Shown one piece after another: positions 1 to 22,459 of a stretch of DNA of 32,000 nucleotides. Under the pieces are notes generated by a model. The model searched no databases and was not told the DNA's origin. It saw only the letters and a program-made list of their open reading frames with translations. This DNA is from an uncultured Bacilli bacterium (GTDB lineage Bacteria > Bacillota_I > Bacilli_A > RF39 > UBA660), in contig CANQWB010000004.1 in the NCBI GenBank assembly GCA_947627435.1, positions 19,331 to 51,330 on the forward strand. Direction: 5' to 3'. The translations under genes and the position numbers were made by a program. Position 1 is the stretch's first letter, and the number at the start of each line of letters is the position of its first letter.

Positions 1-350
1 TGATTGCGAATTGCTTTACATATCACTTGTTGTTCTTCTCTATCATCTGAAAGTATAGATAAAAATTGGTCTTTTATAATCTTTTCTCCTAAGTCGGCAT
101 GATCAATGGAATGTCTATCTTCATATGTTTTGTATTCTGTCCATTGGGAAAATCTACCAATATCATGATATAGTCCAATCACTAAGGCTAGATTTTGATC
201 TTCTTCACTTAAATGTATGGATTTAGCAATCTCATAGGCATAATTCATCACGCGAAAAGAATGATGAAACTTTCTCATAATAGCTTCATCTTGCATATCA
301 AAATTTTTTACATATTGAATAAAAGTTTTTCGGCATTGTATAGTATCCAT
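1..350 (-). CDS. HD/HDIG-domain metal-dependent phosphohydrolase (C-terminal part lies outside the window)
   Basis: The minus-strand frame is open to the window edge. The ATG at 350-348 is preceded by AGGAGAGG. The translation MDTIQCRKTFIQYVKNF...FHHSFRVMNYAYEIAKSIHLSEEDQNLALVIGLYHDIGRF... carries the H...HD(IG) metal-ligand signature of the HD superfamily. The ORF is absent from the supplied track because it is truncated. Confidence 0.75.
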   Translation of the reverse strand, partial: MDTIQCRKTFIQYVKNFDMQDEAIMRKFHHSFRVMNYAYEIAKSIHLSEEDQNLALVIGLYHDIGRFSQWTEYKTYEDRHSIDHADLGEKIIKDQFLSILSDDREEQQVICKAIRN

Positions 351-365
351 GATAAATCCTCTCCT

Positions 366-585
366 AAAAAAATCATCACATCCTATAAGGACGTGATGAC
401 GTGGTACCACCTTAATTTATAACCTAAGTTATCTCAAACTCTTTAACGCAGAAAAACGAAATATTCTACTTCATTTCAAATATTCAGCTCCCAAGCTACC
501 TTCTAATGGTTATCTAATCTGTTTGCACCTACCACAGACTCTCTTCTTAGCATTCCATTATACTCCTCTTGTTCAAAGCTTTTAT
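366..585 (-). promoter_or_regulatory. T-box riboswitch leader with a glycine (GGU) specifier and an intrinsic terminator
   Basis: Read on the minus strand. The stem I 5' side is GGAGTA, followed by helix TAATGG/CCATTA. The specifier loop is GAA-GGT-A, with the codon being the complement of 498-500. An F-box GCGTTA is present. The T-box core is AAGGTGGTACCACG (about 400-413). The antiterminator is AAGG[TGGTACC]ACGT-CATC-ACGT-CCTT. The terminator is TCATCACGTCC-TTATA-GGATGTGATGA (373-399) followed by T7, then the RBS and ATG of the HD gene. Confidence 0.85.
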
Positions 586-588
586 AAC

Positions 589-617
589 ATTATATGCGTA
601 AATAAAACTTTTGTCAA
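589..617 (-). promoter_or_regulatory. sigma-A type promoter for the T-box/HD-gene transcript
   Basis: On the minus strand there is TTGACA (612-617), a 17-nt spacer, and TATAAT (589-594). It sits directly upstream of the T-box stem I. Confidence 0.65.
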
Positions 618-622
618 TGATT

Positions 623-662
623 AAAATAAAAACACAAATGGATTTGATTGACAAATCTTCCA
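623..662 (-). terminator. probable intrinsic terminator after the SpoIID-like gene
   Basis: On the minus strand, GG-aa-GATTTG-tcaat-CAAATCC is followed by the T-rich run ATTTGTGTTTTTATTTT. It lies 38 nt past the stop at 700. Confidence 0.45.
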
Positions 663-699
663 TTCATATATATGCTGATACAATACCCTAATTGGCATA

Positions 700-2007
700 T
701 TATGACAAACTTAAAACAGTCCCAGGATAATAATGCGCTAAAATTTGATGATAACTATAACCAGCATTGGCCATTCCATTGGCACCATATTGACTCATAC
801 CAACACCATGACCCCATCCACGCGTTGTAACAACCAAATTCCCATTTTCAATATGTAAATCAAAATCAGCAGAACTCAACCCTAATAAATTTCTTAAATC
901 TACTCCTTGATAAATTTGATTTTGGATACGTACTTCTGCCACCCTACCACTTTCATTACGACTTAAGATTTCGATATCCCCTTCCTGTAAATTGGTAATT
1001 CCAAATATTTGTAATATTTGATTCATATCTTTATATTCTGTTTTTAAATAAAAAGTGGTATTCATATCATAACTGGAATCCACACTTTGCAAATAAGGAA
1101 CCTCATATCCCCATACATTCCTTGCTGCTTCTGTTTTCCCATTGCTCGTCGAGTGATACACAGCATCAATATACTGACCTTGATAACGCAAAGTTTCTCC
1201 CTTTGTACTTTGGACAGCATCTTTTATTTTATTATAATAAAAATCAAAAGAAGAACCCCACATATTACGTAGCTGCCCTTCATCATAATAGACTTGTGTA
1301 TCAGTAGTATCTGTTAACCTTTTTCCTTCACTTTGATATTTCAAAGCATAAGTGCGAGCAAGTACGGCTTGTGCTTGTAAAGCGGGAAGTGAAAATGATG
1401 CAGGAATTTCGGCAGCAACCACACCTGTCACATAATCTTCTAAAGCAAGTGTAACCGGAACACCACTACGGTAAATAGTAATTGGATGCTCTATGATTTG
1501 CTCTTGGATAGGAGATTCTGGTACTGACTCTGATGGTAATTGTTGAGTTTCATTGGTCGATGAAACTGACTCTGATGTTGGTTCTACGGACGATACAGAA
1601 TGGGATGTTTCTTGGGTATCCGTTGTTTCTATATCTACATTTATATTCATCTCATTATCTGGTTGCATTTCTTCTATTTGTACTTCTTTATCGATCAAAT
1701 CATAAAAAGAATTATCTGTTAATTGTTCTGTAATCGCAGAAGACATATATAAATTTGGATCTGCTGAAACAGGTTTTTGATCATCTCCAAGTAACAATGA
1801 AGCTATTACAATACCACTTGCAAGAATGACTACTTTTTTACCATAGAAAGCAATTCTATTTTTACGGATCCATTCTTCTACTTGCTTTCCGATTTTGCCA
1901 TCTTTCATATTTGAAAAAAATTCTTTACTAAATTCATAATCATAGGAAAGATAACAATATAATACTTCTTGTCCATTCTCATTTTTTACTTCAAAAGATT
2001 CTAACAT
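700..2007 (-). CDS. SpoIID/LytB-domain protein with an N-terminal membrane anchor and an acidic/Ser-rich linker
   Basis: 435-aa ORF. The ATG is preceded by GGTGG. A TM segment (VVILASGIVIASLLL) is followed by a low-complexity linker. The SpoIID-family hallmarks follow: VVAAEIPASF...ALQAQAVLARTYAL...YHSTSNGKTE...GWGHGVGMSQYGANGMA. Confidence 0.85.
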   Translation of the reverse strand: MLESFEVKNENGQEVLYCYLSYDYEFSKEFFSNMKDGKIGKQVEEWIRKNRIAFYGKKVVILASGIVIASLLLGDDQKPVSADPNLYMSSAITEQLTDNSFYDLIDKEVQIEEMQPDNEMNINVDIETTDTQETSHSVSSVEPTSESVSSTNETQQLPSESVPESPIQEQIIEHPITIYRSGVPVTLALEDYVTGVVAAEIPASFSLPALQAQAVLARTYALKYQSEGKRLTDTTDTQVYYDEGQLRNMWGSSFDFYYNKIKDAVQSTKGETLRYQGQYIDAVYHSTSNGKTEAARNVWGYEVPYLQSVDSSYDMNTTFYLKTEYKDMNQILQIFGITNLQEGDIEILSRNESGRVAEVRIQNQIYQGVDLRNLLGLSSADFDLHIENGNLVVTTRGWGHGVGMSQYGANGMANAGYSYHQILAHYYPGTVLSLS

Positions 2008-2032
2008 ATAACCACCATTATTAATATGGGAA

Positions 2033-2070
2033 TAAATAAAAAAAAGAATACGAATTTTTATTCATATTCT
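2033..2070 (-). terminator. intrinsic terminator after clpC
   Basis: The palindrome AGAATAcGAATttttATTCaTATTCT (2045-2070) overlaps the clpC stop codon. It is followed on the minus strand by T8. Confidence 0.55.
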
Positions 2071-4387
2071 ATCTTACTTTTTCTTTGGATAAAGAAACAA
2101 TTTGGATATGATCCTCACCCTTTATCACCTGATCAATAATTTGATTTTCAATTTTATCTTTGATAATTTTATCAATCTTACGAGCTCCAAACTCAGTATA
2201 ATTGGATAATTTACAAATTTCTTCTAGAACAGATGTCTTAATACGTACCGTAATCTTCTTGTGCGCATATTTGTCTTTTAATTCTTTTATTTTTGTATGA
2301 ACTACTTCCATAATATTTTCTTTGGTAAGTGTATGAAAAACAATCACATTATCAATTCGATTCACAAAGGCAACACTAAAATTTTCTTTTAACTTACTTA
2401 GAATCGTATCATGGGATGCTTCATGAAATCCTACATGAATATCGGAAAAACCTATATTAGATGTCATTAAAATAATCACATGGTCAAAACGAATGACTTT
2501 TCCACTCGCATCTTTGATTTCACCTTTTTCTAAAATCTGAAAAAACAAATGAATAATATTAGGATGTGCTTTTTCGATTTCATCTAATATTAAAACAGAA
2601 TATGGCTTATTTCTAATTTCTTCTAAAATATTACGGTTATCGTCATAGCCTACATAGCCTGGAGGTGCTCCTACAATTTTACTGATGGCATGCGCTTCAG
2701 CATATTCACTCATATCTAAACGAATGACATTTTCTTTTCCTACCATACATTCTCCAAACAAAGTAGATAAAGCAGTCTTACCAACGCCCGTTGGTCCCAT
2801 AAATAACATGGAATAACATTCATGTTCATAAAAACCTAACTTAATTTTTTTGGCGATATGAAATAATTCTTCTAATGCATGATCTTGTCCTACAATTTTT
2901 GTTTTCAATTGTTTTTCAAGAGCTGTCACTGTCTTTTCATTATCTGCGAGTAATTCATACACAGGAATCTTAGTTTTTAAATGAACAACTTCAGCAATAT
3001 CTTCTTTGGTAACAGGTTTTCTATTTTTTTGATATAATTTTAATTCTAATTGATTCATTTCATCTAAATACTGATTTTCTTCTTCTTTCAATTGAGATGC
3101 TGTTTCAAAATCATGACGTATTACCGCGTTATTCTTCTCCAAAATTAAATTTTCCACTTTCTTTTTCAATTGATTGTATTTTTTAATATCTTTATTTTCT
3201 TTCAAACTTACTTTAGCGCATACTTCATCTAAAATATCAATGGAGCGATCGGGTTCATTTCGATCATATATATATTTACCAGATAAATCAATTATCAAAT
3301 CAATCATATCTTCACTCATCTCAACAAAATGATATTTTTCATAAATAGATTTTAATTTCATAAGAATATCTTTGACAATTTCTCGTGATGGAATATCTAC
3401 TATAATTTTTTGAAAGCGACGTTCTAATGCACCATCTTTTTCAATATATTTTTTATATTCTGTCGTTGTAGTTGCTCCAATACAACGTAATTTATTACGT
3501 GCCAAAGCAGGTTTAAAAATATTGGATGCATCAATCGCACCTTCTGCTCCTCCCGCTCCTACTAATGTATGAATTTCATCAATAAAAAGGATAATGTCAT
3601 CATTTTCTTCTATTTCTTTTAAAATCTTGCGCATACGTTCTTCAAATTCACCACGATATTTTGTTCCTGCTACTGCGGATGCCATATCTAAACTGATAAT
3701 ACGTTTATTACGCAACTGCATAGGTACTTCTCCACTCACAATCATACGAGATAATTCTTCTACAATCGCAGTTTTACCAACACCAGCTTCTCCAATGAGA
3801 AGTGGATTATTTTTTGTTCTTCTGGATAATACTTCAAGCACACGTTTGATTTCTGCATCCCTACCAATGACAGGATCTAATTCTCCATTTTGTGCTTTTT
3901 GTGTTAAATCGATACCCAATTCTTCTAACAATAGTTTTTTATTTTTTTTATGTTTCTTAGGATTTGTAATACGATATACAAAATCAGAATATAACTGATC
4001 AATATCAATGTTCATACCCATTAAAATGCGAATCGCAACCCCTTCTCCTTCTTCCAACATACTTGAGAATAAATGTTCAATTGTCACTTCGCCACTGTTA
4101 TTTTCCTTACTATCAATAATCGCATTTTCAATAATTCGTTTTAAAAGTGGTGTACGTAAATAATATTCGTTTGGTTCACTTCCTACTCCAATTACAGAAA
4201 TAATTTCTTCTTTGAATTTATGATAATCCAAGCCATATTCTTTTAATTTTTTAGAAATACTATTTTCTCGTTTTAAAATAGAAAGCAATAAATGTTCGCT
4301 TCCCACATATGGATGTTTCAAATCATACATTTCTTTTTTGGCTGCTGCTAAAATTTTCCTTGCTTCTTCTGTAAAATTACCATACAT
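2069..4387 (-). CDS. clpC: Class I Clp/Hsp100 ATPase, ClpC-like (ATP-binding subunit of the Clp protease)
   Basis: 772-aa ORF with RBS GAGGAGA 9 nt upstream of the ATG. The N-terminus has Clp_N repeats (FTEEARKIL...[10 protein letters not shown]; [22 protein letters not shown]). There are two P-loops (GEAGVGKTA and GPTGVGKTA), Walker B motifs ILFIDEIH and [11 protein letters not shown], and a coiled-coil middle region. No ctsR/mcsAB genes lie upstream. Confidence 0.85.
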
Positions 4388-4900
4388 AAGATATCATCTC
4401 CTCTATCTATTCTATGTATATGATGAAACAATAACTTACATTTTAATCAACAATTTACTTCTTTTTTCCATGTCTTACTATAACATCTTCAAAATAATAA
4501 ATATGTCGGAGTATAGAAGAGATTAAAAACTATAGATTTTATTTCTTCTATTGAATGGTCATGAATGCGAATATTTTTCCAACATTTGTTTCATTTCACT
4601 CAATTTGGTTTCTAATAATTTTTTATAATTGCATTGTATAGAATAATACCTTTACAATTGCGATCATATGACTTTCCTCTTCTGTTTTTTATATTACTCA
4701 AAACCAACATATTACTGGACCAACTCAATTGTGTCAACAGTGTTGACAATATATATTTCACTATAATCGTAGTGTTTTCTATCATTTATTGAAATATACA
4801 TTTATCATTTTCTTCTGTTATTATACTGGAAATCATTCTAAATCCCTTTTTCCATAATGACTCATACATCTTGTAACATTATTATGTATGGAAATTGATG

Positions 4901-4929
4901 ATAAAAAAAATCAATCATTACGATTGATT
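4901..4929 (-). terminator. intrinsic terminator after the VWA gene; left copy of a 29-30 nt direct repeat
   Basis: On the minus strand, AATCAATC-GTAAT-GATTGATT is followed by T8. The sequence ataaaaaaaatcaatcattacgattgatt recurs at 8919-8948 with one extra A. Confidence 0.7.
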
Positions 4930-4954
4930 GAAAATAAAATAATATGATATCAAC

Positions 4955-6355
4955 TTACTTCGTTTTTCCTTTTATCTCACCTGCTATTTGACAATGATAT
5001 AATTGATTCAGTTGATGATCATCTATATAAATTACTTTACCACCTGGTGGATGAATTTTACGTCCACCAAAGACAATCCAAATCGCATCGATTGAAGTAT
5101 TAGGCATATTTGCTTGTCCATCAGTAAAAATGATCTTATTTTCTACTCTTTTAGTAAATGAATTTACTGCAGTATCAAAGTTCGTTCCGCCTCCACCATA
5201 CAATTTTAAATTATCAATATCTGATAGCGTTTTGATTTCTGTAAATCCATAAAACATGGTATCAAAACAGCCTACTTTCACTTTAGAAGTTGGTAATATA
5301 TTTTTACATTCCCTTAAAAAATTTTTAACAAGTGTTTCATTTATAGAACCACTTGTATCTAAAATAATTTCTGTTTCTGGTCTTGTTATTTCTTCTAAAT
5401 ATGCGGTTACTACACCATCTTCTATCCCCGCATTTTGATATGACCAATCAACGTCATATGTAATTGCCTCTTTTAACAATGTTCTCCAATCAAAAAGTGG
5501 TTTAGCTGTTCCAATATCCGTAATATTTCTTGTTTCACTATTTGTCATACTTCCATGGCCATGTGATTGACTAGCTAATGATTTTCTTAATTCTTCTAGT
5601 TGCTTTTTTCTTTCTAATTTATTTTGCTTAAATGCTTCTTTTTCACCAATTTTTGTTAATTCTTTCGCTTCTTCATTCTTTTCATTTTCTGAATTAAGAT
5701 TTTGCATTTTACTAGATTGTTCTTCTTGATGTTTCTTCTCTATTGCCTTATCCCACATAGCATGCGTATCATGTCCAACATCGCAAGTTTCGTTTTCTTC
5801 GCTTTTAGAAGAAGTGGAAGATGACTCTAAATTACTTTTTTGATTTTGACTTTGACTATTTTGATGATTAGAACTTTCCATGTTTGCATTTGAAAAACCT
5901 TTCCCATTTTGCTTTTGTTGTTCTAAATTAGTATTTTTTGTATCATTACCTTGCCCACTATTTTGTTGCTTTTCTTTTAAAAGTTTTTGATACATTTCTT
6001 CTGCATCATAATGGATTGCCTCTGGAGTATCAACTGCACCTTCTATGATAGATAATCCATCTTGTTTAAGAAAAGCATTGATAACGGAATCAGTAGCAAT
6101 ATTCCATAAATTTTGATCTTTACCTTCACTTCTCACAATATGATTAAATGCAATATGACATATTTCATGTGCGAAAATAAATACTTGTTGATCGTCAGTA
6201 ATCGATTCCATAAAGTTAGAATTATAATAAATATTTGTACCATCCGTTCCAGCTGTTCCTACGGATGTTTTTGAAATAAAGTTGGAATGCACTACTACAC
6301 TTCCAAAAAGAGGATACTTAACTAATAATTTTCTTTTCATTGATTCTAAATTCAT
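4955..6355 (-). CDS. Zincin-like metallopeptidase domain (DUF2201_N-like) fused through a long low-complexity linker to a VWA/MIDAS domain (DUF2201-like)
   Basis: 466-aa ORF. Its RBS AAGGA overlaps the stop codon of the upstream gene. The N-terminus reads LFGSVV...GTAGTDGTNIYYN...FIFAHEICHIAFNH...WNIATDSVINAFL, with the HExxH at 6155-6169. Residues about 125-275 form a Q/N/S/E/K-rich linker. The C-terminus reads ILDTSGS (the DxSxS MIDAS motif at 5345-5359)...GGGGTNFD...IIFTDGQA, which is typical of a VWA fold. Confidence 0.75.
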   Translation of the reverse strand: MNLESMKRKLLVKYPLFGSVVVHSNFISKTSVGTAGTDGTNIYYNSNFMESITDDQQVFIFAHEICHIAFNHIVRSEGKDQNLWNIATDSVINAFLKQDGLSIIEGAVDTPEAIHYDAEEMYQKLLKEKQQNSGQGNDTKNTNLEQQKQNGKGFSNANMESSNHQNSQSQNQKSNLESSSTSSKSEENETCDVGHDTHAMWDKAIEKKHQEEQSSKMQNLNSENEKNEEAKELTKIGEKEAFKQNKLERKKQLEELRKSLASQSHGHGSMTNSETRNITDIGTAKPLFDWRTLLKEAITYDVDWSYQNAGIEDGVVTAYLEEITRPETEIILDTSGSINETLVKNFLRECKNILPTSKVKVGCFDTMFYGFTEIKTLSDIDNLKLYGGGGTNFDTAVNSFTKRVENKIIFTDGQANMPNTSIDAIWIVFGGRKIHPPGGKVIYIDDHQLNQLYHCQIAGEIKGKTK

Positions 6356-6364
6356 AAGACATCC

Positions 6365-6766
6365 TTAAATTTGCGCTAAAAGGGAATAAACTTCTTCATT
6401 CACCTTATTTGCACTCAGATCTGAGCAAGTAACAATCACCAAACAATTTTTAGGTAATTCAAATGTGCTAATTTTTTTATATTTTAATATTTCAATAAAT
6501 TTAGTTTGTTCTTCTAATGCAATTTCATTGATATTCTCAATGACCAAAGCAGTAGGATTTGTTTTACTTTTTTCGATTAACTCTTGATACCACGTTGGAG
6601 GACAAAAATTGGTATTTTCATAATGTCCATTTAATTCTGCTTTTTCAATATTTGATTTTATTATCACTGAAGAACGAAAAAAATTTGAAGGTATATTTTC
6701 AATCAATAACGGAGATACACCAGATTGAATATAATTCTTTAATAAATCTAATCTTTCTTGATTCAT
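6365..6766 (-). CDS. Truncated, catalytically degenerate AAA+ (MoxR-like) paralogue of the upstream ATPase core
   Basis: 133-aa ORF. Its ATG overlaps the upstream stop (ATGA at 6763-6766). It aligns by eye with residues about 360-430 of the 641-aa ATPase. The small ORF reads CPPTWYQELIEKSKTNP-TALVIENINEIALEEQTKFIEIL...LPKNCLVIVTCSD. The ATPase reads VPPTWYSRVLEKCKAEPNKIHIIFFDELTNALPSIQ...LPTNARIVAAGND. The P-loop position reads LLIENIPSNFFRS (no GK[ST]), and the Walker B DE is replaced by EN. Confidence 0.6.
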   Translation of the reverse strand: MNQERLDLLKNYIQSGVSPLLIENIPSNFFRSSVIIKSNIEKAELNGHYENTNFCPPTWYQELIEKSKTNPTALVIENINEIALEEQTKFIEILKYKKISTFELPKNCLVIVTCSDLSANKVNEEVYSLLAQI

Positions 6767-8688
6767 CTTGTCATTCCTCCTTGTGATAAGTTATCCTTCA
6801 TTTGTATTTCTGCAAGGTGTTCTAATCTTTTTTCATCACCATGTGTCCACATAGATTCAAAGGCAGCTCTTGGCTCTGCACCTATTTGTTTCATAAAATC
6901 TCTGACTACTTCAAAATGTTCATCATCAACAGAAGATAAACCTACTGCGGTTGCGAATTTTTGTGATATATCCATTTCTAAATCGACATCTGAATAATTG
7001 TGCTGAATAACATCTTCTACACTTATGACTTGCTGTTTTACAAAAGCTGTAAAATCCCATGTTAACTCGTCCCCTATTAGTGCTCTTAACATTGTTGGCT
7101 GTTTCGTTTTATAAAGTAATTTAGATGCCATTTCCCATTTTCTTGGATCTGCATTTGGTTTATCTCCAGTATAAGGAGTTCTTAATACATCATAACCACT
7201 GTAAGATTTATACGCTATATAAGCATAAATGGCAGGATGAATTTTTGCATCTAGTTTCTCTTCTTGATAGTCTAACCTTTCATATTTTTCTTTAGGCGTA
7301 GATGCCCATCGCAACCAACTATCTACTGTAGTATGAATATAAACATGAGCAAATCTGTTAAATAATGGTTCAGCCATTTGATTAGCCGCTAATGAATCAT
7401 TCAAATCGTTTCCTGCGGCAACGATTCTAGCATTTGTTGGTAATTTCCATTTACCATTTACTTCACCATCTAAAACAATATTAAATGCCATACCCTGTAT
7501 AGAAGGAAGTGCATTGGTTAATTCATCAAAAAAGATAATATGAATTTTATTTGGTTCTGCTTTACATTTTTCTAATACGCGTGAATACCATGTTGGTGGT
7601 ACATCAATCATTTCTCCCTTTTCCGCATTATAAACACTTTTTCCATTTAAACTATCAGGAGTTGCATTTCTCATATATATAATTTCACAATCTGGATCCA
7701 ACTGTTTTACTCTTGCAGATTTACCTTCGCTTGATTTACCATGTAAGAATACTGAAATATTACTTTCTACTGCTCCTCTTATGATATCTTCTTCTGATAC
7801 TTTATCAAAATGAAAGCCATAAGGATTTTGTTTTCTGACAGATTCTTTTCCTTCTACAATTAATATATTCGATTTCTTTTCTCCTTCTGAATTTTGTGTT
7901 TGCTCTAATTGGTTGTTTTTTAAAACGCTATTAGAAACGATTTCTTTTGAAAAATAACGATCCATAAATTGTTTGATATCCGTTTTATCAAAATCACCAT
8001 TATAAGTTTCGTCATTTTTAAATTGTACTCCAGAAAAAAGAATTTTCTTGGAAAGTGCTATATCAGCTTTTTCATCAACCAACCAAATAATTGGTTCTAC
8101 ACGTACCCAACGTACGTCTCCTAACTTAACCCGTCTACCATCAGACAAAATTTCTTCAGCACAGTTTTGATCTACCACAAAACGAATATATCTTTTTCCA
8201 TCATATTCATATTCAATATGTTGTCTGTCTTGAAAACTTATACTATAATCGTTAACTTGAACTGAGTCCGTCGTGTATTTTCTACCTGTAGTTCTTAAAT
8301 ATCCAGTATAGTATCTGTTTTCTAATAAAGTTTTCAAATGATAGTTATCAACAATTGTTTGTGGATATTCGCCATATGCAACTTCTAACACTCCACTATT
8401 TTCTCTCCCTTTGTACGAAGAGATAGATTGGATGGAAGAATAAGGTAAAGCTGGGCGTGCCCCACCAGTACGTCCCTGAATATTGCTCCAACAATAACTA
8501 CCATTCGTGTCAACGTTCCATGCATTACCTGTCCACCAAAAACCAGTAGTATAATCTTCTGATGACACATAACCACCTAATAAAATCGCAAAATCAGTGA
8601 TAGCACATTTGGTACCATATTTATCAAATATATCTAATCTAGAGTTTCCAAAAATAAGGTCATCAGTTAAAAAAGTACAATTAGTCAT
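6763..8688 (-). CDS. AAA+ ATPase (MoxR/AAA_5-like core) with a ~260-aa N-terminal non-ATPase domain (DUF6273-like motifs) and a ~190-aa C-terminal extension
   Basis: 641-aa ORF with RBS AGGTGGTG. Walker A is GKSSEGKS (7717-7740), and I verified the codons GGT AAA TCA AGC GAA GGT AAA TCT. Walker B is IIFFDE (7522-7539). Sensor-1-like ARIVAAGN and PLFNRFAHV are present. The N-terminal 260 aa read AITDFAILLGG...GFWWTGNAW...GGARPALPY, then AYGEYPQT...VEPIIWLVDEKADIALSKKILFSG. There is no signal peptide or TM segment. Confidence 0.75.
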   Translation of the reverse strand: MTNCTFLTDDLIFGNSRLDIFDKYGTKCAITDFAILLGGYVSSEDYTTGFWWTGNAWNVDTNGSYCWSNIQGRTGGARPALPYSSIQSISSYKGRENSGVLEVAYGEYPQTIVDNYHLKTLLENRYYTGYLRTTGRKYTTDSVQVNDYSISFQDRQHIEYEYDGKRYIRFVVDQNCAEEILSDGRRVKLGDVRWVRVEPIIWLVDEKADIALSKKILFSGVQFKNDETYNGDFDKTDIKQFMDRYFSKEIVSNSVLKNNQLEQTQNSEGEKKSNILIVEGKESVRKQNPYGFHFDKVSEEDIIRGAVESNISVFLHGKSSEGKSARVKQLDPDCEIIYMRNATPDSLNGKSVYNAEKGEMIDVPPTWYSRVLEKCKAEPNKIHIIFFDELTNALPSIQGMAFNIVLDGEVNGKWKLPTNARIVAAGNDLNDSLAANQMAEPLFNRFAHVYIHTTVDSWLRWASTPKEKYERLDYQEEKLDAKIHPAIYAYIAYKSYSGYDVLRTPYTGDKPNADPRKWEMASKLLYKTKQPTMLRALIGDELTWDFTAFVKQQVISVEDVIQHNYSDVDLEMDISQKFATAVGLSSVDDEHFEVVRDFMKQIGAEPRAAFESMWTHGDEKRLEHLAEIQMKDNLSQGGMTR

Positions 8689-8918
8689 ATTGACACCACC
8701 TAACTATATCATAGCATATTTTTATATTTTTTAATAGTTTTTCTACGCATCATAGTTTAATTCTTTGCATTAACTATTTTTTCAATCACATTTGTAGATT
8801 TTGGAATCACTTCTATTTTTTTATAATTTTCATATGATTTAACCAACTTACTTGTAACACATTATACCAATTCATAAAAATAGAGCGATTATTTATCATG
8901 GATTGTTTCATTTTTTTT

Positions 8919-8948
8919 ATAAAAAAAAATCAATCATTACGATTGATT
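8919..8948 (-). terminator. intrinsic terminator after the flippase gene; right copy of the 29-30 nt direct repeat
   Basis: The hairpin is the same as at 4901-4929 (AATCAATC-GTAAT-GATTGATT), here followed by T9 on the minus strand. It lies 5 nt past the stop at 8954. Confidence 0.7.
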
Positions 8949-8953
8949 TTAGA

Positions 8954-10561
8954 TTATGATTTTCTAAAACGAGAAAGTACTTGTTTCAATATTCCACTTT
9001 TAATTACAGTTACTCCATATACAATGACGCCAAGCACTGTATAGAATAACACTTTAATAATGGCTATCATGCGGCTTTCTGTAGTAACAGGTATGAATCT
9101 TCCTATAATTTTTAAACTTACATACATAATCAGTGTAGAAAGAATGATTTTTAAAATCATATAGAAAGTATTTCCAAATACAATTTTATGTTTATGCTTT
9201 AACTGATATAATACAATCGCAATCACAATTCCTTGTGCAATTATAGTTGCTATACTAGGTCCATAATAAGATTCCATACCCATGATATGACATAAATACA
9301 TAATAGGAATATTTAAAATCACTTTTAATAAAAATCCAAACAATAAACTTCCAAGCGCTACTTTAGTATCATTCATCGTTTGCACAATATTGAGTAAAAT
9401 GGTCATACAACAAAATGTCAAAGCTTGAAAAATAAAAAGGGAAAAAATAGAACTACATATAGAATCTGCCCCATAGAAAATAGTCCATACAGAATCTGCT
9501 AAAAAAGAAAGTCCAAAAACCATTGGCAATACAAAAAATAACAATACTTGTAAAGCTGCTTTGATTTTAATACTCACTTCTGTCATATTTTGATTGACAT
9601 AAGCACTTGCGATATTAGGAACTAAACTCATACTAATTCCAAGCGCAATAGATATGACTATCATATTTAATTTTGTGCCCCAAGTATTTAATACCCCTAT
9701 AACACTTTCAGCAATACTGGCTTCATATCCAAGTTGCGTCAACGTTTTGACAACGGTAAAGGTATCTACTAAAGAAAACGCCGATTTACATAAATCAATT
9801 GCTAAAAAAGGAAACGCATAGAAAATAATTTTTTTCACAATCACTTGATTGGTTATTTTTGCTTCATTTCTAGTTATTTTCGGATGACAATATAATTCTT
9901 CTTTGTGATGATATATTTTTGATCCTAAATATAAATACGCAATAATGGCACCTGCAGTCGCACCAAATACAGCTACCCCTACAGCGGTATCAATGGATAC
10001 ATGAAATACCTTTAAAGCCAATAAACTGCCAAGTAGAATCACGCTCACGCGCACAAGTTGTTCTAAGACATTTGCTTTACTCACGCTATCCATCATTTGA
10101 TGTCCCTGTAAATATCCTTTGGTAACACTAAATATTGGTACAATCAATAAAGAAGTAGAAATAATGCGAATTACCATGGTGACACTTTGCACTGTATTTC
10201 CACCAGTTAAATTACCCAAAATCAAATGGGCAAGAGTTGGTGCAGAAATCATCATAATCAAATACAGTACAAATGATAATGCTGTAATTACAAGTAAACC
10301 TATCTTATATACTCGTTCTTTACTATTTTGATATTGTAATGTTTGATATTCACTTACAAGTTTGGAAATCGCAATTGGAATCCCACTAGTTGATAAACTC
10401 AAAAAAACGGCATAAATAGAATAAGCATAGCTATAAAGAGCGCCTCCCCGACTTCCTACCATAGAATAAAAGGGAATCACATAGAGTAATCCTATCATTT
10501 TACAAATGATAATTCCGATGGTGGCAATCAATGCACCTTCTAAAAAATTACTTTTTTTCAT
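8954..10561 (-). CDS. MOP-superfamily flippase (MurJ/SpoVB/YtgP-like polysaccharide or lipid II flippase)
   Basis: 535-aa polytopic membrane ORF. The N-terminus KSNFLEGALIATIGIIICKMIGLLYVIPFYSMVG...ALYSYAYSIYAVFLSLSTSGIPIAISKLVSE is typical of the YtgP/SpoVB subgroup. The RBS GAGG lies after the stop of the small upstream ORF. Confidence 0.75.
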   Translation of the reverse strand: MKKSNFLEGALIATIGIIICKMIGLLYVIPFYSMVGSRGGALYSYAYSIYAVFLSLSTSGIPIAISKLVSEYQTLQYQNSKERVYKIGLLVITALSFVLYLIMMISAPTLAHLILGNLTGGNTVQSVTMVIRIISTSLLIVPIFSVTKGYLQGHQMMDSVSKANVLEQLVRVSVILLGSLLALKVFHVSIDTAVGVAVFGATAGAIIAYLYLGSKIYHHKEELYCHPKITRNEAKITNQVIVKKIIFYAFPFLAIDLCKSAFSLVDTFTVVKTLTQLGYEASIAESVIGVLNTWGTKLNMIVISIALGISMSLVPNIASAYVNQNMTEVSIKIKAALQVLLFFVLPMVFGLSFLADSVWTIFYGADSICSSIFSLFIFQALTFCCMTILLNIVQTMNDTKVALGSLLFGFLLKVILNIPIMYLCHIMGMESYYGPSIATIIAQGIVIAIVLYQLKHKHKIVFGNTFYMILKIILSTLIMYVSLKIIGRFIPVTTESRMIAIIKVLFYTVLGVIVYGVTVIKSGILKQVLSRFRKS

Positions 10562-10575
10562 ACTTCAAAACCTCA

Positions 10576-10749
10576 CTATTTTTGATAAATAATCATAGCG
10601 GAAAAACAATATACTTGTTCTTCTGAAAATACACTCAAAGAAACTTGATATTTAATATCTATTACTTCTACATCTTCTTCACTTAAAAAGTCATTAATCG
10701 CCGCTTCTAAATCTTTTTCATGATCCTCATCAAATAATTTTACTTTCAT
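10576..10749 (-). CDS. Cse60-like small sporulation protein (57 aa; below the ORF-track size cutoff)
   Basis: My own translation of the minus strand gives MKVKLFDEDHEKDLEAAINDFLSEEDVEVIDIKYQVSLSVFSEEQVYCFSAMIIYQK*. The pattern VKLFD..HEKDLE..IN.FL....IDIKYQV....EEQ.YCFSAMI.Y matches my memory of the Cse60/YteV family. The stop TAG is followed by GAGG and the flippase ATG. Confidence 0.6.
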   Translation of the reverse strand: MKVKLFDEDHEKDLEAAINDFLSEEDVEVIDIKYQVSLSVFSEEQVYCFSAMIIYQK

Positions 10750-10775
10750 ACTATCACCTGATGAAAATATAACAT

Positions 10776-12320
10776 TTATACATGTCTAAATCTGTTGATT
10801 TTAGAAGAAATTTCACTCTTTATTTTTTCATAAAAATACTTGAAATCTTCTGATTTTCGAAATAAGAAATAAAATAAGACATTGACAATTAAAAAACATA
10901 AAACAGCTTTTAGGAAAAACCATATTAAATTTTTATTTGGAATCCAATTGACAACCCAATAAGTGAAAAAAGTAGTCCCTATCAATATTAGTAAAAAATA
11001 TATATATTTTGTGAAATAATGTTTTGCACTTTGTTGAAATCCATAATGATACACAATATAAGGATCTATCCAAGCAACCGTCACAAGGCGACTAATGATA
11101 GTTCCTAAAACAACTCCCGCAATTCCCATAAAATGTACTAGTATAATAGATACAATTAAATTGATTGCAATCATAACAAGTGGACGATATTTGGCCTTCC
11201 AAAATAATCCATAAGCATTACGAAAAGAAGTTGTCACAGATTGCATACCAGTAATATAAAAATTAAAGGCAAGTAACAATATTACGTTAAATGGTAATAA
11301 ATACTCTTTTCCAATCCAAATTTGAATAAATGGATTGAACAATACCAACAAACATATACTACAAAGTGCATATAGCCAAAAATTCACCAAATTTAATTTT
11401 TCATAGACATTTGCACTTCTCTTACCATTGGTCGTTACAACTAAATTACCAATACTAGATGTAATCGCATTAAATAGTTGATTTAAAATAAGTGTTAAGG
11501 AATTCATAATCAATAAATAGTTAGAATAAATACCAACCATGACTAGACCAATATATTTTGAAATCACAATGTTATCTGTTCCGTTTGTCACAACATTTCC
11601 AACACGATAAATTAACAAGGCCGATACATTCTTTTTAATATCATGAATATCTTGTGGATCCATTTTTCCAACCTTTTTTTGTTTTAAAAATGGGTACAAT
11701 TGCATCGCTTTATGGGATATATATATATTTTGAATTACTACAATAAAAATACTAGATAATAAGAATAAAATATAATTTTTGGTTGTGATTAATAGAATAA
11801 TTTGTAATATGGATAAAATTGTAGAAAAAATAAAAATGATTTCCGCTGTAATATAACCTTTTTGATCCGATTCAATTAAAAATCTCTTGTATACAAAGAA
11901 ATAGCTAGATGCAGAATGAATTACAAAAAGTGCATAAATCCATGGAAGTGCAGGAATACTTGGCATATCTTTAATGATGAAACCTAAGAATGGAGTTAAT
12001 GATAATCCTACCAGCAAAACAAATACTCCTATTACATTATATACCTTTGCATAAAATTTCATGAGAATATTAATTTTTTCTGTATCATGTTCTGCCAAAG
12101 GCTTATATAAACTATAAGGAATCGCAACTCCAATGCCCAAATCTGCCAAAGAGAGCATAGTAATAATATTTGAAAAAAGGCCATTGACACCTAGATATTC
12201 AGAACCTAAAGTATGAATAAAAACAGTTTTTACAATAAAATTAATGCACACGGTTAAAACTTGTGTCACAATGGATACTGTTGAATTACGAATAGAGTTT
12301 TGTGTTCTTGATTCTGCCAT
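10776..12320 (-). CDS. Wzx-like oligosaccharide/polysaccharide flippase (MOP superfamily)
   Basis: 514-aa polytopic ORF. The N-terminus SIRNSTVSIVTQVLTVCINFIVKTVFIHTLGSEYLGVNGLFSNIITMLSLADLGIG is typical of Wzx/RfbX-type exporters. Confidence 0.7.
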   Translation of the reverse strand: MAESRTQNSIRNSTVSIVTQVLTVCINFIVKTVFIHTLGSEYLGVNGLFSNIITMLSLADLGIGVAIPYSLYKPLAEHDTEKINILMKFYAKVYNVIGVFVLLVGLSLTPFLGFIIKDMPSIPALPWIYALFVIHSASSYFFVYKRFLIESDQKGYITAEIIFIFSTILSILQIILLITTKNYILFLLSSIFIVVIQNIYISHKAMQLYPFLKQKKVGKMDPQDIHDIKKNVSALLIYRVGNVVTNGTDNIVISKYIGLVMVGIYSNYLLIMNSLTLILNQLFNAITSSIGNLVVTTNGKRSANVYEKLNLVNFWLYALCSICLLVLFNPFIQIWIGKEYLLPFNVILLLAFNFYITGMQSVTTSFRNAYGLFWKAKYRPLVMIAINLIVSIILVHFMGIAGVVLGTIISRLVTVAWIDPYIVYHYGFQQSAKHYFTKYIYFLLILIGTTFFTYWVVNWIPNKNLIWFFLKAVLCFLIVNVLFYFLFRKSEDFKYFYEKIKSEISSKINRFRHV

Positions 12321-12398
12321 ATCATCACATATCTTTCTGTTATTATTATATCGAAAAATACAATACTTGTAAATTCTAATTTTCTTTCATGTATATAT

Positions 12399-12423
12399 AA
12401 AAAAGAAGTAATGAATTTACTTC
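12399..12423 (-). terminator. intrinsic terminator after the M23 peptidase gene
   Basis: GAAGTAA-attca-TTACTTC is followed by T6 on the minus strand, 12 nt past the stop at 12435. Confidence 0.6.
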
Positions 12424-12434
12424 TTTTACAATCA

Positions 12435-13631
12435 TCAATAAGCAGTAATACGATCAGTCCAACGATTATAAAGACCTGATGGAAAATTAATGACACTTCT
12501 AGGATTAATAGAATATTTTTGATTCAATTCATATGTCCAATTGACATAATCCACCAAAAAGCGTCCCGTTGCGATAGTCACATGTAAATGTGGACCAGTA
12601 GTACATTGATCATATCCACCAGCAGTACCACCGGAATAACCAATTACAGTATTACGTGTTACTTCTTGACCACTACTGACGTTGATGGATGATAAATGTG
12701 CATAAACAGAAGTATAATATCTATTATTGATATTATGATGTACAATTACCATGTTTCCACCACAATTATAACGTACAACCGAAGCAACCATACCAGTACC
12801 AACGGCATAAACAGTAGTACCAACACCAGCACCTATATCAATTCCTTCATGCCATGATCTTCCTAGTAAATCTCTTGGTCCCCATTCACTCGTAATATAA
12901 CCTGACTCCGTTGGACGATAGAATGCTGTACCTTGTGGTAATACACTACGACCACAAGTTGCAATATCCTCATTTTCAGTACAACCTTTACTTCTGTATA
13001 ATGCAATAACTTCTTTTTGATATTCAATTGTATCGGCAATGTCTACACTGACAGCATCTAAATCTACAATCGTTTGTCCTAATAAATTTTTCTTTTGTTC
13101 TAGCTGTTCTTTTTGATTGGCCATTTCACTTTGTTTTTTCGTTAATTCTTCTTGTTTTTTCTTAGATTCATCAATCGTAGCATTATATTGGTCAATCAAT
13201 TTTTCATTATAACCAGTAATTTGTTCAGATACTGCAACACGATAGATAAAATCTGTAAAATCCTGTGCTCCAAATGCATATTCTAAGTAAGCAGATTCCC
13301 CATTAGAAATTTGCACAAAATGGATAATATCTTTCATTTGTTGATCTTTCTTTTTGATCTCTTCATTTAAATGATCAATTTCAATTTGTAGATTTGCCAT
13401 ATCGACATAAATTTGATCAATATTACTTTGTAATCTGACAATTTCTTGATTGGCTTGATTAATTTCTTCTTGTGTTTGCGCTCTTTTGTTTTTGTTTTCT
13501 GAATACTCTGCTTCTTTTTGTTCTAACTCTCGTACTAATTCACCCAATGTTTTGGCATGGGCGACAGTTGGAACACAAAAAGTAGTTGATAGCATCATAA
13601 CAATACAAAAAACGGAAAATATCTTCTTCAT
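12435..13631 (-). CDS. Secreted M23-family peptidoglycan metalloendopeptidase with an N-terminal coiled coil (EnvC/LytM-like architecture)
   Basis: I moved the start to the ATG at 13631 (MKKIFSVFCIVMM...), which has GAGGTG 5 nt upstream. The track's GTG start lies inside that RBS. A signal peptide ends in VAHA, followed by a long coiled coil. The M23 motifs are HEGIDIGAGVGTTVYAVGTGMV and GPHLHVTI. Confidence 0.85.
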   Translation of the reverse strand: MKKIFSVFCIVMMLSTTFCVPTVAHAKTLGELVRELEQKEAEYSENKNKRAQTQEEINQANQEIVRLQSNIDQIYVDMANLQIEIDHLNEEIKKKDQQMKDIIHFVQISNGESAYLEYAFGAQDFTDFIYRVAVSEQITGYNEKLIDQYNATIDESKKKQEELTKKQSEMANQKEQLEQKKNLLGQTIVDLDAVSVDIADTIEYQKEVIALYRSKGCTENEDIATCGRSVLPQGTAFYRPTESGYITSEWGPRDLLGRSWHEGIDIGAGVGTTVYAVGTGMVASVVRYNCGGNMVIVHHNINNRYYTSVYAHLSSINVSSGQEVTRNTVIGYSGGTAGGYDQCTTGPHLHVTIATGRFLVDYVNWTYELNQKYSINPRSVINFPSGLYNRWTDRITAY

Positions 13632-13642
13632 ACAACACCTCA

Positions 13643-14272
13643 CTACTCTTTCAATTGCTTTTTTATCTCTTTATAGTTTGGACAATATTTCATGACGAGA
13701 TTCCAAAATTGTTTAGAATGATTAAAATGAATTAAATGAGATAATTCATGAATAATCACATAATCAATCGTTTCGAGTGGATAATGTAATAACTCAGCAT
13801 TCAAGGTAATTGTTCTACTCTTTCTATTACATACACCCCATCTAGTTTTCATACTACGAATACGCATACGATAATATGGAATCTTTTCTTCAAATTTTTG
13901 ATAACAAATGTAATAACGTTCTAGAAAAATTTGTTTCATTTGTTTTTGATACCATTTTTGCAACTGCTCCCTACTGGAAGTATATATATGATCATGAATC
14001 ATTTCTATATGATCAGTAGGTATTATAATTATATCATAACTTTCTCCTAAGTATATGAATTTTTCTTGCTTTTGTTGTTTATATTGACATTTTGTAATCA
14101 TTTTGATAATGGCATCCTCATTATGTTTCAAAATATCTAAGATTTGTTTTTTCGTGACAAAATAATTTGTAGATACTTCTATTTTCTCATCTTTCATACG
14201 GATATACGTATGTTTATTATTTTTTCGAATCACTTCTACAGGGTATTCTTTTCCATTTATTTGATACTTCAT
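13643..14272 (-). CDS. DUF45/YgjP-like (M48-related, WLM/SprT-like) zinc metallohydrolase
   Basis: The translation contains RWGVCNRKSRTITLNAELLHYPLETIDYVIIHELSHLIHFNHSKQFWNLV, which is the characteristic HExxH...H block of the family. I prefer the second ATG (14272), which has AAAGGG 6 nt upstream. The stop abuts the M23 gene. Confidence 0.75.
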   Translation of the reverse strand: MKYQINGKEYPVEVIRKNNKHTYIRMKDEKIEVSTNYFVTKKQILDILKHNEDAIIKMITKCQYKQQKQEKFIYLGESYDIIIIPTDHIEMIHDHIYTSSREQLQKWYQKQMKQIFLERYYICYQKFEEKIPYYRMRIRSMKTRWGVCNRKSRTITLNAELLHYPLETIDYVIIHELSHLIHFNHSKQFWNLVMKYCPNYKEIKKQLKE

Positions 14273-14302
14273 ATGCATCCCTTTATCATTATATCACACA
14301 TT

Positions 14303-14327
14303 AAAAAAATGAACTATTTGAGTTCAC
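14303..14327 (-). terminator. intrinsic terminator after the YfcC-like gene
   Basis: TGAACT-caaat-AGTTCA is followed by T7 on the minus strand, just past the stop at 14343. Confidence 0.55.
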
Positions 14328-14342
14328 TTTTCATAATTTTTT

Positions 14343-15782: not shown

Positions 15783-15909
15783 CTTATTACCTCCATTATC
15801 ATTATAACACATCTAAACATAAATCAAAAATTTTTTTTACTATATTTTTCCAAAATAGATTGATTCTCGAATCAATTTACGATATTTTATAGTATATGGA
15901 TGTGATGTT

Positions 15910-16854: not shown

Positions 16855-17156
16855 TGTTGTCCTCGTTTCCAAAAGGTTTTCATAAAACCTTTTTGTTGTT
16901 CATGATTTGTTTCCATTGGTATTTCTGTCACACCATATTTGATGTATGCCTCTTCCATTGAAAGAAAACCACGCCCTATTAATTTTTCAATCGTTTTCTC
17001 TCCTAAAATTTCATAATAGTAATGTCCACAAAAGACACGATATATTTGGTTCATATTTTTTTGAATCATATAAATATTTACATCATGTTGATTGATCACT
17101 TCGTATACATAATCTAAATCATTATCTGCTTGTAGTTGTTTTTGTTTATTCAGCAT
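16851..17156 (-). CDS. hypothetical protein (about 101 aa) downstream of tex
   Basis: The ORF lies in the same orientation as tex. I prefer the ATG at 17156 (MLNKQKQLQ...), which has AGGTGA upstream. The track's ATG at 17186 lacks an RBS. I recognise no motif. The 3' end overlaps the convergent radical-SAM stop by 4 nt. Confidence 0.4.
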   Translation of the reverse strand: MLNKQKQLQADNDLDYVYEVINQHDVNIYMIQKNMNQIYRVFCGHYYYEILGEKTIEKLIGRGFLSMEEAYIKYGVTEIPMETNHEQQKGFMKTFWKRGQH

Positions 17157-17195
17157 AACATCACCTATCATAGTATATGAAATCATAAGAAATTG

Positions 17196-22419: not shown

Positions 22420-22459
22420 CCACTCATATAAGGTTGTAATGCTTTTGATATTAGAATAC
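22420..22459 (-). repeat. left copy of a 40-nt imperfect direct repeat; displaced relic of the serS 3' end
   Basis: ccactcatataaggttgtaatgcttttgatattagaatac is compared with 23730-23769, ccacccatataaggctgtaatgcttttggtattagaatac (37/40 identical). Read on the minus strand and continued to a TGA at 22392-22394, it encodes ILISKALQPYMSGKTVITKKR*. That is a plausible SerRS C-terminus. Confidence 0.8.

Follow-up and report, generated by a model that had tools for sequence, protein, structure and literature searches.

A retroelement-less copy of a mobile gut-Bacilli gene cassette that combines an AAA+ ATPase, a pseudo-AAA+ subunit and a zincin-VWA protein, with a predicted role in biological conflict

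What could be the function of a compact unit of three genes that encode an AAA+ ATPase, a short relative of its core and a protein combining a zincin domain with a VWA domain, and that sits between the genes for a flippase and ClpC? This question is raised by a 32,000-nucleotide stretch of DNA from an uncultured Bacilli bacterium (contig CANQWB010000004.1, positions 19,331 to 51,330; hereinafter the window, that is, the whole stretch analyzed). The unit consists of three translationally coupled minus-strand open reading frames (ORFs), denoted A, B and C (L and P numbers below designate the related loci and homologous proteins, respectively, that were compared with them). A first-pass annotation of the window, made from the sequence alone, described a tight unit with overlapping signals, and this description was confirmed by the ORF list and by translation: the stop codon of A overlaps the start codon of B in the sequence ATGA, and the AAGGA ribosome-binding site of C, 9 nt 5' of its ATG, overlaps the stop codon of B. 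The explanation that we favor, with modest confidence, is that the window carries a retroelement-less, 'frozen' copy of a mobile cassette of gut Bacilli in which A would be a sensor-motor protein, B an adaptor and C a zincin-VWA protein, and that this cassette functions in biological conflicts.

The central clue comes from the relatives of A. The first-pass annotation had proposed a candidate sensor domain fused to the ATPase, and this proposal is strongly upgraded by the finding that, in related loci, the region in question is the target of a diversity-generating retroelement. Directly upstream of A in locus L011, there is a bAvd-like gene, an 83-nt repeat and a reverse transcriptase gene (RVT_1 match with an E-value of 6e-17; LGNQSSQ and YMDD motifs), and the second copy of the repeat lies within A itself, at codons 70-98, ending with ...GGARPALP; the RVT_1 and bAvd profile matches confirm the identity of the retroelement genes. 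Pairs of template and variable repeats, 80-101 nt long, were detected in seven loci (L011, L017, L019, L031, L033, L044 and L097), with the variable copy at about codons 59-100 of A, and 81 of the 96 mismatches between the two copies fall on adenines of the template (binomial p = 3e-27). A template repeat, a reverse transcriptase and Avd were also found in L108. The alignments of A proteins contain a single hypervariable patch of roughly 28 codons, located between WWT and GGARPALPYSS and marked by an entropy peak among 47 homologues, with the rest of the protein being highly conserved; in one cluster of 818 members at 90% identity, those examined differ mainly in the stretch VVxxxGxxxWxxVxxRxGGARP.

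Diversification of the patch tracks the retroelement. When the retroelement is present, A proteins from different loci differ at 8 of 34 patch positions and at 0 of 574 positions elsewhere (L017 vs L018), or at 10 of 35 and 5 of 569 positions, respectively (L031 vs L033), whereas in lineages that lack the retroelement, the patch is frozen, with 0 of 39 differences against 1-5 of 589 elsewhere among L024, L025, L027, L028 and L037, and 0 of 35 against 40 of 563 between L090 and L094. Counted over the 49 distinct loci with at least 1.5 kb of sequence upstream of A, an intact reverse transcriptase is encoded in 10, short remnants are found in 5, and nothing of the kind is present in 34. The short reverse transcriptase fragments upstream of A (L045, L062/L063, L075, L077/L078, L080, L081, L084 and L086-L089) cover 85-152 aa at about 56% identity, are accompanied by a frozen patch and represent decayed retroelements.

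The patch also varies between copies of A within the same locus. Several A genes can share a single B and C, as in L059 (A-A-A-A-B-C, 8020-17670), L069 (A-A-B-C, 9989-15665) and L057 and L068 (A-B-C-A), and such paralogues are 90-98% identical in the AAA+ core, 32-85% identical in the middle domain and 23-44% identical in the patch. Considering that the retroelement rewrites the N-terminal domain of A, this protein can be predicted to be the specificity (sensor) subunit of the system, and the candidate sensor domain, whose patch is rewritten in the relatives, to be a programmable binding site.

Two further features of the variable modules were observed. The long versions of A (P0002, P0003, P0094, P0108 and P0114; 892-936 aa) have the whole N-terminal sensor module doubled, and a separate WW...RPA patch is present in both copies. 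The variable region of A contains an in-frame TGA codon in L011 (8610-8612), L031 (about 9639-9641) and L033 (about 10270-10272); the template repeats of these loci have TAA at this codon, with a further TGA in L011. The TGA codons possibly reflect decay of the template, an 'off' state or a consensus sequence that is a chimera from a mixed population; translation with genetic code 4 (TGA = Trp) was considered as well and was not supported.

The window copy of A lacks the mutator. No reverse transcriptase, Avd, template-like repeat or reverse transcriptase remnant was detected in the 32-kb window. The equivalent of the variable region (Table 1) is 5-10 residues shorter than those of the relatives, and the homing-site-like element at its 3' end (GGTGGGGCACGCCCAGCTTTACC) has one mismatch to the variable regions of L019 and L017. 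The differences between the window patch and the L019-type template, read by eye, are mostly at template-adenine positions. All contigs of the window strain, across several samples, encode an identical A protein. Given the absence of a retroelement from the 32 kb and the invariance of the patch within the strain, the window gene appears to be an orphaned, frozen target and, with the mutator gone, a single specificity would be inherited unchanged; a retroelement acting in trans may be encoded elsewhere in the same genome. The loss of the reverse transcriptase and template repeat, the shortened patch and the lost match to the DUF6273 domain (see below) could also be read as signs that the trio is a functionless relic decaying after the loss of the retroelement. 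We consider such decay quite improbable: all three ORFs, the catalytic motifs and the coupling signals are intact, the sequence is identical across several samples, and in other lineages that lack the retroelement, the three genes have likewise remained intact, with few substitutions.

What kind of protein, then, does the retroelement diversify? The intact Walker A (GKSSEGKS, aa 317-324) and Walker B (IIFFDE, aa 384-389) motifs and the sensor region that had been read in A were verified by translation, and residues G322, K323, S324, D388, E389, N427 and R445 are invariant in the 47 homologues. The motor portion (aa 301-624) matches the PHROG family phrog_1297, annotated 'ATPase' (E-value of 5.6e-41). 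The AAA_5 or AAA_3 match that was expected of A went undetected in the window protein, which scored above the cut-off with no Pfam AAA family, the sole trace being a sub-cut-off match to Sigma54_activat (E-value of 0.014); these families emerge only in more distant members of the A family, among 66 representatives of which AAA_5 was found in 32, AAA_3 in 7 and bpMoxR in 2. Because the family models match the distant relatives and not the window protein, the AAA_5/MoxR-like membership of the latter is transitive only.

The N-terminal domain is predicted to be of the DUF6273 type, a C-type-lectin-like fold known as a retroelement target (PMC10743442; bioRxiv 10.1101/2024.10.15.618418). Homologues at 65-73% identity to the window protein carry PF19789 (DUF6273); the match of P0002 reaches 27.3 bits vs a cut-off of 23.5, and sub-threshold matches in L019, L090 and L108 are to the C-terminal part of the model, which corresponds to the variable region. 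The same profile comparison gave no DUF6273 match for the window A. Across the 66 representatives of the wider family, the place of the lectin module can be taken by BspA-type LRR, LRR_8, WG repeats, DUF4116 or SWIM modules, and one member is a fusion to DUF2201.

Structure prediction adds little for A. The AlphaFold2 model, built with 47 homologues of 70-79% identity, has a predicted local distance difference test (pLDDT) score of 56.7, below 50 in the core, with the best-predicted parts, blocks 101-140 and 151-170, at 75-92. Foldseek searches with this model retrieved nothing at E <= 0.001, and the weak matches to MCM, McrB, dynein and 2r44 are meaningless given the poor model; comparison with PDB chains, both with the single sequence and with a profile, gave no match even at E = 10. 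A transmembrane scan detected no hydrophobic stretch of membrane-span length in A, B or C, indicating that the system is cytoplasmic. Judged by its sequence, A can be described as a cytoplasmic, AAA_5/MoxR-like AAA+ motor with a predicted N-terminal lectin-like binding domain.

The first-pass annotation described B as a fragment-like paralogue of the ATPase core and as a degenerate subunit; the paralogy and the degeneration hold, and the fragment does not. B aligns with the A core in BLASTP (27% identity over A364-449, E-value of 7e-8) and in hhalign (B35-133 with A337-449, probability of 88.6%, E-value of 2.6e-6). Its AlphaFold2 model, from a 56-sequence alignment, has a pLDDT of 87.3 and a predicted template modeling (TM) score, pTM, of 0.81, and Foldseek matches it to AAA+ alpha/beta cores (probability of 1.00, E-values of about 1e-5, query TM-scores of 0.6-0.68), including those of MuB, NorQ from the NorQD complex, the MoxR-type CbbQ2, sigma54 activators, Lon and dynein. 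The P-loop position is occupied by QNIPS, compared to GKSSEGKS in A, and neither a Walker A nor a Walker B match was found in B; the DE of Walker B is changed to EN, the arginine of the NRF motif of A is replaced, and the lid domain is lost. Sequence and model comparisons alike thus identify B as an inactive AAA+ paralogue of the A core, most simply derived by partial duplication of A. The alternative that B is a mere gene or pseudogene fragment is ruled out by the length of 130-133 aa, conserved across hundreds of 90%-identity clusters (391 and 706 matches), by sequence conservation in two deep clades with a mutual identity of 40-45%, and by the confidently predicted fold. B is encoded directly 3' of A in 54 of 68 loci. 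In a few lineages (L035, L041, L043 and L046), A is directly followed by C without B, suggesting that B is an added component.

The description of C as an HExxH zincin combined with a MIDAS (metal ion-dependent adhesion site) VWA domain was verified by translation, with both motifs intact, and the two Pfam models predicted for it were indeed found above their cut-offs: DUF2201_N with an E-value of 8.8e-32 (111.2 bits vs 23.2) and DUF2201 with an E-value of 1.5e-12 (48.1 bits vs 26.4). C also matches phrog_1314 (E-value of 8.3e-65). Comparison with PDB chains yielded marginal zincin matches only, and we found no functional study of DUF2201 in the literature.

The closest known relatives of the pair formed by A and C are encoded by lytic phages. 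The A core is 26% identical to gp24 (ATPase) of phage N4 (E-value of 2e-10), and C is 29% identical to N4 gp25 (E-value of 5e-17); in tblastn searches, each matches about 500 phage genomes, mostly of N4-like and PA5oct-type jumbo phages, where the two genes are adjacent (as are gp24 and gp25 in N4) or nearly so. A nucleotide search with the whole unit against phage genomes gave no match. Both gp24 and gp25 belong to the 14 core genes of N4-like phages, where they are listed as 'unknown' and 'vWFA domain', respectively (PMC4193335). These pairs of Schitoviridae and jumbo phages thus comprise a homologous motor and zincin-VWA partner, like A and C; however, the phage ATPase, of about 350 aa, has no N-terminal sensor, unlike the window A, the N4-type phages have neither a B-like gene (none in L009 or L010) nor a retroelement, and the linker of the window C is longer. 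N4 gp25 (L112, 3165-4307) and phrog_1314 carry the label 'HNH endonuclease' in RefSeq and PHROGs, which looks like a propagated annotation error because the protein consists of a zincin (HExxH) and a VWA domain (DUF2201_N and DUF2201).

A pair of MoxR and a metallopeptidase-vWA protein has been described, from computational analysis, in jumbo phages, and Iyer et al. proposed that it functions in virion assembly (PMC7824862). By extension of this proposal for virion or tail MoxR-vWA proteins, the cassette could encode an assembly chaperone with a processing protease, the retroelement being incidental or serving a structural protein. Compatible with such a role, Iyer et al. envisaged proteolytic processing along with virion assembly for the jumbo phage pair (PMC7824862), and the characterized MoxR-VWA pairs, NorQD, CbbQO and RavA-ViaA, are all maturation chaperones (PMC13036017, PMC9976466). 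We nevertheless consider it unlikely, given that most of the loci contain no virion genes, that the target of the retroelement is the ATPase itself, inside its binding domain, that the paralogue arrays vary the sensor and conserve the motor, and that a fixed client would not need a hypervariable recognition site.

Among metagenome contigs of gut 'Bacilli', hundreds share the conserved A-B-C arrangement, which occupies different chromosomal sites, and gut metagenomes contain thousands of close relatives of A, the family comprising 5,259 clusters (50% identity, E <= 1e-3). The gene order persists even when A is as little as 48% identical, and 44 of the 49 loci with enough downstream sequence contain C. 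The named genomes that carry the cassette are metagenome-assembled genomes of 'uncultured Bacilli bacterium' from mouse, rabbit and human gut, with the exception of L013 (CAVFIJ010000086.1), which is labelled 'Bacteroidaceae bacterium' and has an A-B-C cassette of 65% identity; this label is probably a binning error because the sequence is low in G+C and of the Bacilli type.

The genes around the cassette differ from genome to genome. In the window, the neighbors are a flippase gene and clpC; other genomes have SecA, IS605 TnpB and RhuM at one end of the cassette and HipA at the opposite end, or GlyRS with a HIGH-family nucleotidyltransferase, or transposases with NAGPA, or type II secretion-like genes with ribosomal protein L21. 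Once, in a 40-kb viral contig from IMG/VR (L097, IMGVR_UViG_3300006217_003178), a full retroelement and A-B-C follow the tail, tail-fiber, holin and endolysin genes (173-5598 and 8234-13589), a typical moron position at the end of a prophage. Helix-turn-helix (HTH) genes and a serine recombinase come after the cassette in L108, with RhuM nearby. The cassette is therefore accessory and mobile, residing among unrelated housekeeping genes in different genomes and, in one case, at a prophage end, which bears out the suggestion of the first-pass annotation that the trio is an acquisition unrelated to its neighbors. Strict conservation at a single site together with a housekeeping partner pathway was not what we found: the neighbors vary between genomes, and there is no conserved partner pathway. 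A search for empty clpC-flippase junctions found none, all contigs with the exact window ClpC or flippase carrying the trio.

This variability bears on two alternatives. The motor and VWA logic shared with NorQ/NorD or CobS/CobT, the intact MIDAS and a G+C content like that of the neighbors would suit host housekeeping, namely metal insertion or complex maturation. We regard such a role as very improbable in view of the neighbors that differ in every genome, with no conserved partner pathway, the variable sites, the association with a retroelement and the lack of an NCBIfam equivalog match, none having been obtained for A, B or C. Somewhat easier to entertain, although still rather unlikely, is a weapon of phages or other mobile elements, in which the lectin domain would recognize host immune or surface-biogenesis proteins and the motor-protease would remove them, the chromosomal copies being prophage remnants or morons. 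The homology of the motor and C to core genes of lytic N4-like and jumbo phages, the position of the L097 cassette after tail, holin and endolysin genes, the serine recombinase and phage-type repressors adjoining the cassette in L108, and the phage-borne nature of most such retroelements known in gut Firmicutes (PMC11792537) are all in line with a weapon. However, cassette carriers amount to 1 of 2.9 million viral contigs vs 288 metagenome stretches, most loci are flanked on either side by housekeeping genes and lack phage genes, and intact, frozen copies persist over long divergence in cellular genomes.

Among the known systems, one close parallel is with the retroelement-associated MoxR-vWA ternary conflict systems (Kaur et al. 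2020, Dore et al. 2024), in which, as here, an AAA+ MoxR-type motor acts together with two other components, one of them a VWA protein, and the sensor diversified by the retroelement has a lectin fold (predicted in our case); threshold sensing coupled to a protease effector has been proposed for these systems (PMC7159879, PMC10907252). In MoxR-vWA and STAND conflict systems, lectin domains diversified by retroelements have been proposed to sense antigens (PMC10907252, PMC7159879). There are several differences: the variable lectin domain of the ternary systems is C-terminal, on a VWA or STAND protein, whereas here it is N-terminal, on the ATPase; their third component is of the VMAP, iSTAND, FtsH or beta-propeller type (profile searches detected none of these domains in A, B or C), compared to the pseudo-AAA+ core found here; and they come from multicellular cyanobacteria, actinobacteria and proteobacteria rather than from small-genome gut Bacilli. 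An AAA-type ATPase is itself the hypervariable protein, as in our case, among the lectin-AAA retroelement targets of the Candidate Phyla Radiation (CPR) and DPANN (Paul 2017, as cited in PMC10907252; 'Midasin' targets, PMC5758913). As described in those accounts, so far as we could draw on them, these targets belong to other lineages and reverse transcriptase clades, with the variable region usually C-terminal, and no zincin-VWA partner or pseudo-AAA subunit is reported there, unlike in the window unit.

The same kind of lectin-like domain as that predicted in A is found in the DUF6273 targets of gut phages (tentaclins, Mtd-like); in tentaclins, too, the variable region is near the 5' end of the target gene and retroelement-less target loci are known (PMC10743442; bioRxiv 10.1101/2024.10.15.618418). 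The DUF6273 targets of phages, however, are virion receptor-binding proteins with Ig-like domains, whereas in the cassette it is a cytoplasmic ATPase that carries the domain. On the motor side, NorQ/NorD, CbbQ/CbbO and RavA/ViaA combine a ring motor with a VWA protein that has a long linker, and NorQ and CbbQ2 are among the best matches of the B model; unlike the window unit, these are housekeeping maturation factors with fixed clients and with no sensor or protease domain. Magnesium chelatase consists of an active AAA+ subunit (BchI/ChlI) and a D subunit (BchD/ChlD) with a degenerate AAA+ module, an acidic/polar linker and a MIDAS VWA domain, so that B and C together resemble a split D subunit (PMC6604950). 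This is an analogy only: there is no Mg_chelatase family match here, the zincin is present in C where D carries nothing, and B is a separate gene. Precedents thus exist for each ingredient (MoxR-vWA systems with retroelements, lectin-AAA targets, phage MoxR/metallopeptidase-vWA pairs and DUF6273 targets). For the combination of an N-terminal variable lectin domain on the motor with a pseudo-AAA+ subunit, a zincin-VWA protein, gut Bacilli hosts, a series from active to lost retroelements and paralogue arrays, we found no description in the literature that could be searched.

These parallels allow a tentative mechanism to be sketched for the cassette. In the NorQD complex, the VWA domain of NorD inserts a finger into the pore formed by the MoxR-type NorQ ring, and the linker of NorD is pulled by the motor (PMC13036017). 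By analogy, A would form a ring on which the VWA domain of C would dock, as NorD does on NorQ, and B could be an AAA+ adaptor or cap that is itself inactive, comparable to the degenerate AAA+ module in the D subunit of magnesium chelatase. Binding of an intracellular ligand by the variable lectin domains would trigger ATP-driven remodeling that is coupled through the linker of C and either presents a captured protein to the zincin, the protease activity of which is a prediction, or switches the zincin on. The biological role would be in conflicts with phages or other mobile elements, possibly including exclusion functions carried by prophages. To our knowledge, such retroelements almost always diversify molecules of host-parasite interfaces. 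This tendency, the antigen-sensor proposals for lectin-NTPase proteins and the mobile, sometimes prophage-borne nature of the cassette lead us to favor conflict with phages or other mobile elements as the most likely role and make a conflict or surveillance function plausible.

Several observations weigh against this interpretation. The window protein matches neither DUF6273 nor AAA_5, and the model of A is too poor to check for MoxR-specific inserts or the lectin fold. Because gp24 and gp25, its closest known relatives, are lytic-phage core genes, the motor-protease pair probably had an ancestral role other than host defense. Where the retroelement is missing, the patch is unchanged over about 7% protein divergence, which fits a stable ligand better than an arms race. 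Finally, the neighborhood check suggested by the first-pass annotation turned out negative: A, B and C had no match in PADLOC-DB 2.0 at E <= 0.1, and the 133 flanking ORFs of 19 loci showed no enrichment of known defense genes, with recurrent PADLOC matches to HTH and control-protein models only and two further ORFs matching the candidate PDC-S05/PDC-S23 models. By Pfam, these flanking ORFs are mostly housekeeping genes, with a few HTH regulators and no recognized defense island; RhuM, HipA, IS605 TnpB or a recombinase occur near the cassette in single loci.

A broader interpretation, possible but clearly more speculative than the conflict cassette itself, is that of a reprogrammable intracellular recognition machine in gut Bacilli and some of their prophages: the retroelement would write lectin specificities onto an AAA+ motor that drives or gates a VWA-tethered zincin against the molecules captured by the lectin domain, with a pseudo-ATPase as the adaptor, and useful specificities would be fixed either by loss of the retroelement, as in the window, or by duplication of A into arrays with a single adaptor-protease pair. 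If so, retroelement-programmed intracellular sensing would extend to abundant small-genome gut Firmicutes, with the variable domain on the ATPase itself, and a hypermutating immune receptor-protease system would exist in single-celled bacteria, outside the 'multicellular bacteria' context of the earlier sensor proposals. The loci with active, decayed and absent retroelements, the latter with a frozen patch, along with the paralogue arrays, would then form a natural series for the fixation of hypervariable specificities. The cassette would also offer a handle on the unexplained function of gp24/gp25, a motor-protease pair that belongs to the core genes of N4-like phages and is also common among jumbo phages, and a diversifiable binding domain combined with a motor and a protease could be a starting point for engineered targeted proteolysis. 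For expression, the window copy offers the simplest version, as it has three genes and lacks a retroelement.

Table 1. Features of the A-B-C unit and its borders in the window (positions in nucleotides of the window)
Feature	Position	Strand	Description
Gene A	6763..8688	-	641 aa; N-terminal lectin-like sensor (predicted), beta-rich middle domain, low-complexity linker, AAA+ (AAA_5/MoxR-like) motor, helical C-terminal domain
A, residues 1-95	8404..8688	-	DUF6273-like (C-type-lectin-like) ligand-binding domain, predicted
A, variable-region equivalent	8452..8523	-	Residues 56-79, AWNVDTNGSYCWSNIQGRTGGARP; same codons as the template/variable pairs of seven relatives
Homing-site-like GC-rich element and hairpin	8444..8466	-	GGTGGGGCACGCCCAGCTTTACC; 3' end of the former variable region, within the coding sequence
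A, residues 100-215	8044..8391	-	Conserved beta-rich middle domain, YGEYPQ ... WVxVEPIxWLVD; several invariant columns
A, AAA+ alpha/beta core	7309..7791	-	Walker A 7717-7740; Walker B 7522-7539; sensor-1 N427 and R445 (NRF) within 7342-7419
Gene B	6365..6766	-	133 aa; pseudo-AAA+ alpha/beta core, no P-loop, no lid domain
Gene C	4955..6355	-	466 aa; zincin, polar linker, VWA domain
C, zincin domain	5981-6337	-	HEICH, aa 63-67, 6155-6169
C, linker	5486-5980	-	Roughly 165 aa, rich in K/E/S/N/Q
C, VWA domain	5021-5383	-	MIDAS DTSGS, aa 333-337, 5345-5359
Conserved leader of A	8689..8742	-	54 nt; TGnTATGAT-like element, GGTGG ribosome-binding site; 5' limit of similarity to other cassettes
Upstream direct repeat	8922..8948	-	27 nt; terminator hairpin of the flippase gene
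Downstream direct repeat	4903..4929	-	27 nt; terminator of the trio

The duplicated sequence that had been noted to bracket the trio (Table 1) is indeed an exact 27-nt direct repeat; each copy consists of an AT-rich hairpin and a T-run, that is, a terminator, and the repeat occurs in contigs of the window strain only. The G+C content of the unit is that of the neighboring genes. The claim that the unit has its own promoter fared less well: a promoter scan gave 26 promoter-like matches vs 29.3 +/- 5.5 in shuffled sequences, which is no excess. However, the leader with its TGnTATGAT-like element is conserved with other cassettes. This leader is 77-82% identical to those of L019, L017, L108, L023, L004 and L106, the similarity starting there, and in retroelement-bearing loci its equivalent is the spacer from the reverse transcriptase stop codon to the start of A.

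The 3' end of the flippase gene (9034-9079) has a 46-nt counterpart of 78% identity between the trio and clpC (4631-4676, minus strand), which encodes a remnant-like fragment, MIAIVKVLFYT.... Together with the 27-nt repeat, it suggests a rearrangement or duplication at the insertion site. The neighbors of the trio in the window include SpoIID, a Cse60-like small spore protein and two Polysacc_synt/MurJ-type flippase-like genes (700-2007, about 10590-10760, 8954-12320), and the presence of SpoIID and the Cse60-like protein suggests that the host is likely a spore-forming member of the Bacilli. Two repeats in the window are unrelated to the trio: a 40-nt direct repeat of 93% identity (22420-22459 and 23730-23769), with the copies 1.3 kb apart, and a 52-nt internal repeat of 77% identity (28183-28234 and 28690-28741) within the ORF at 27978-28925.

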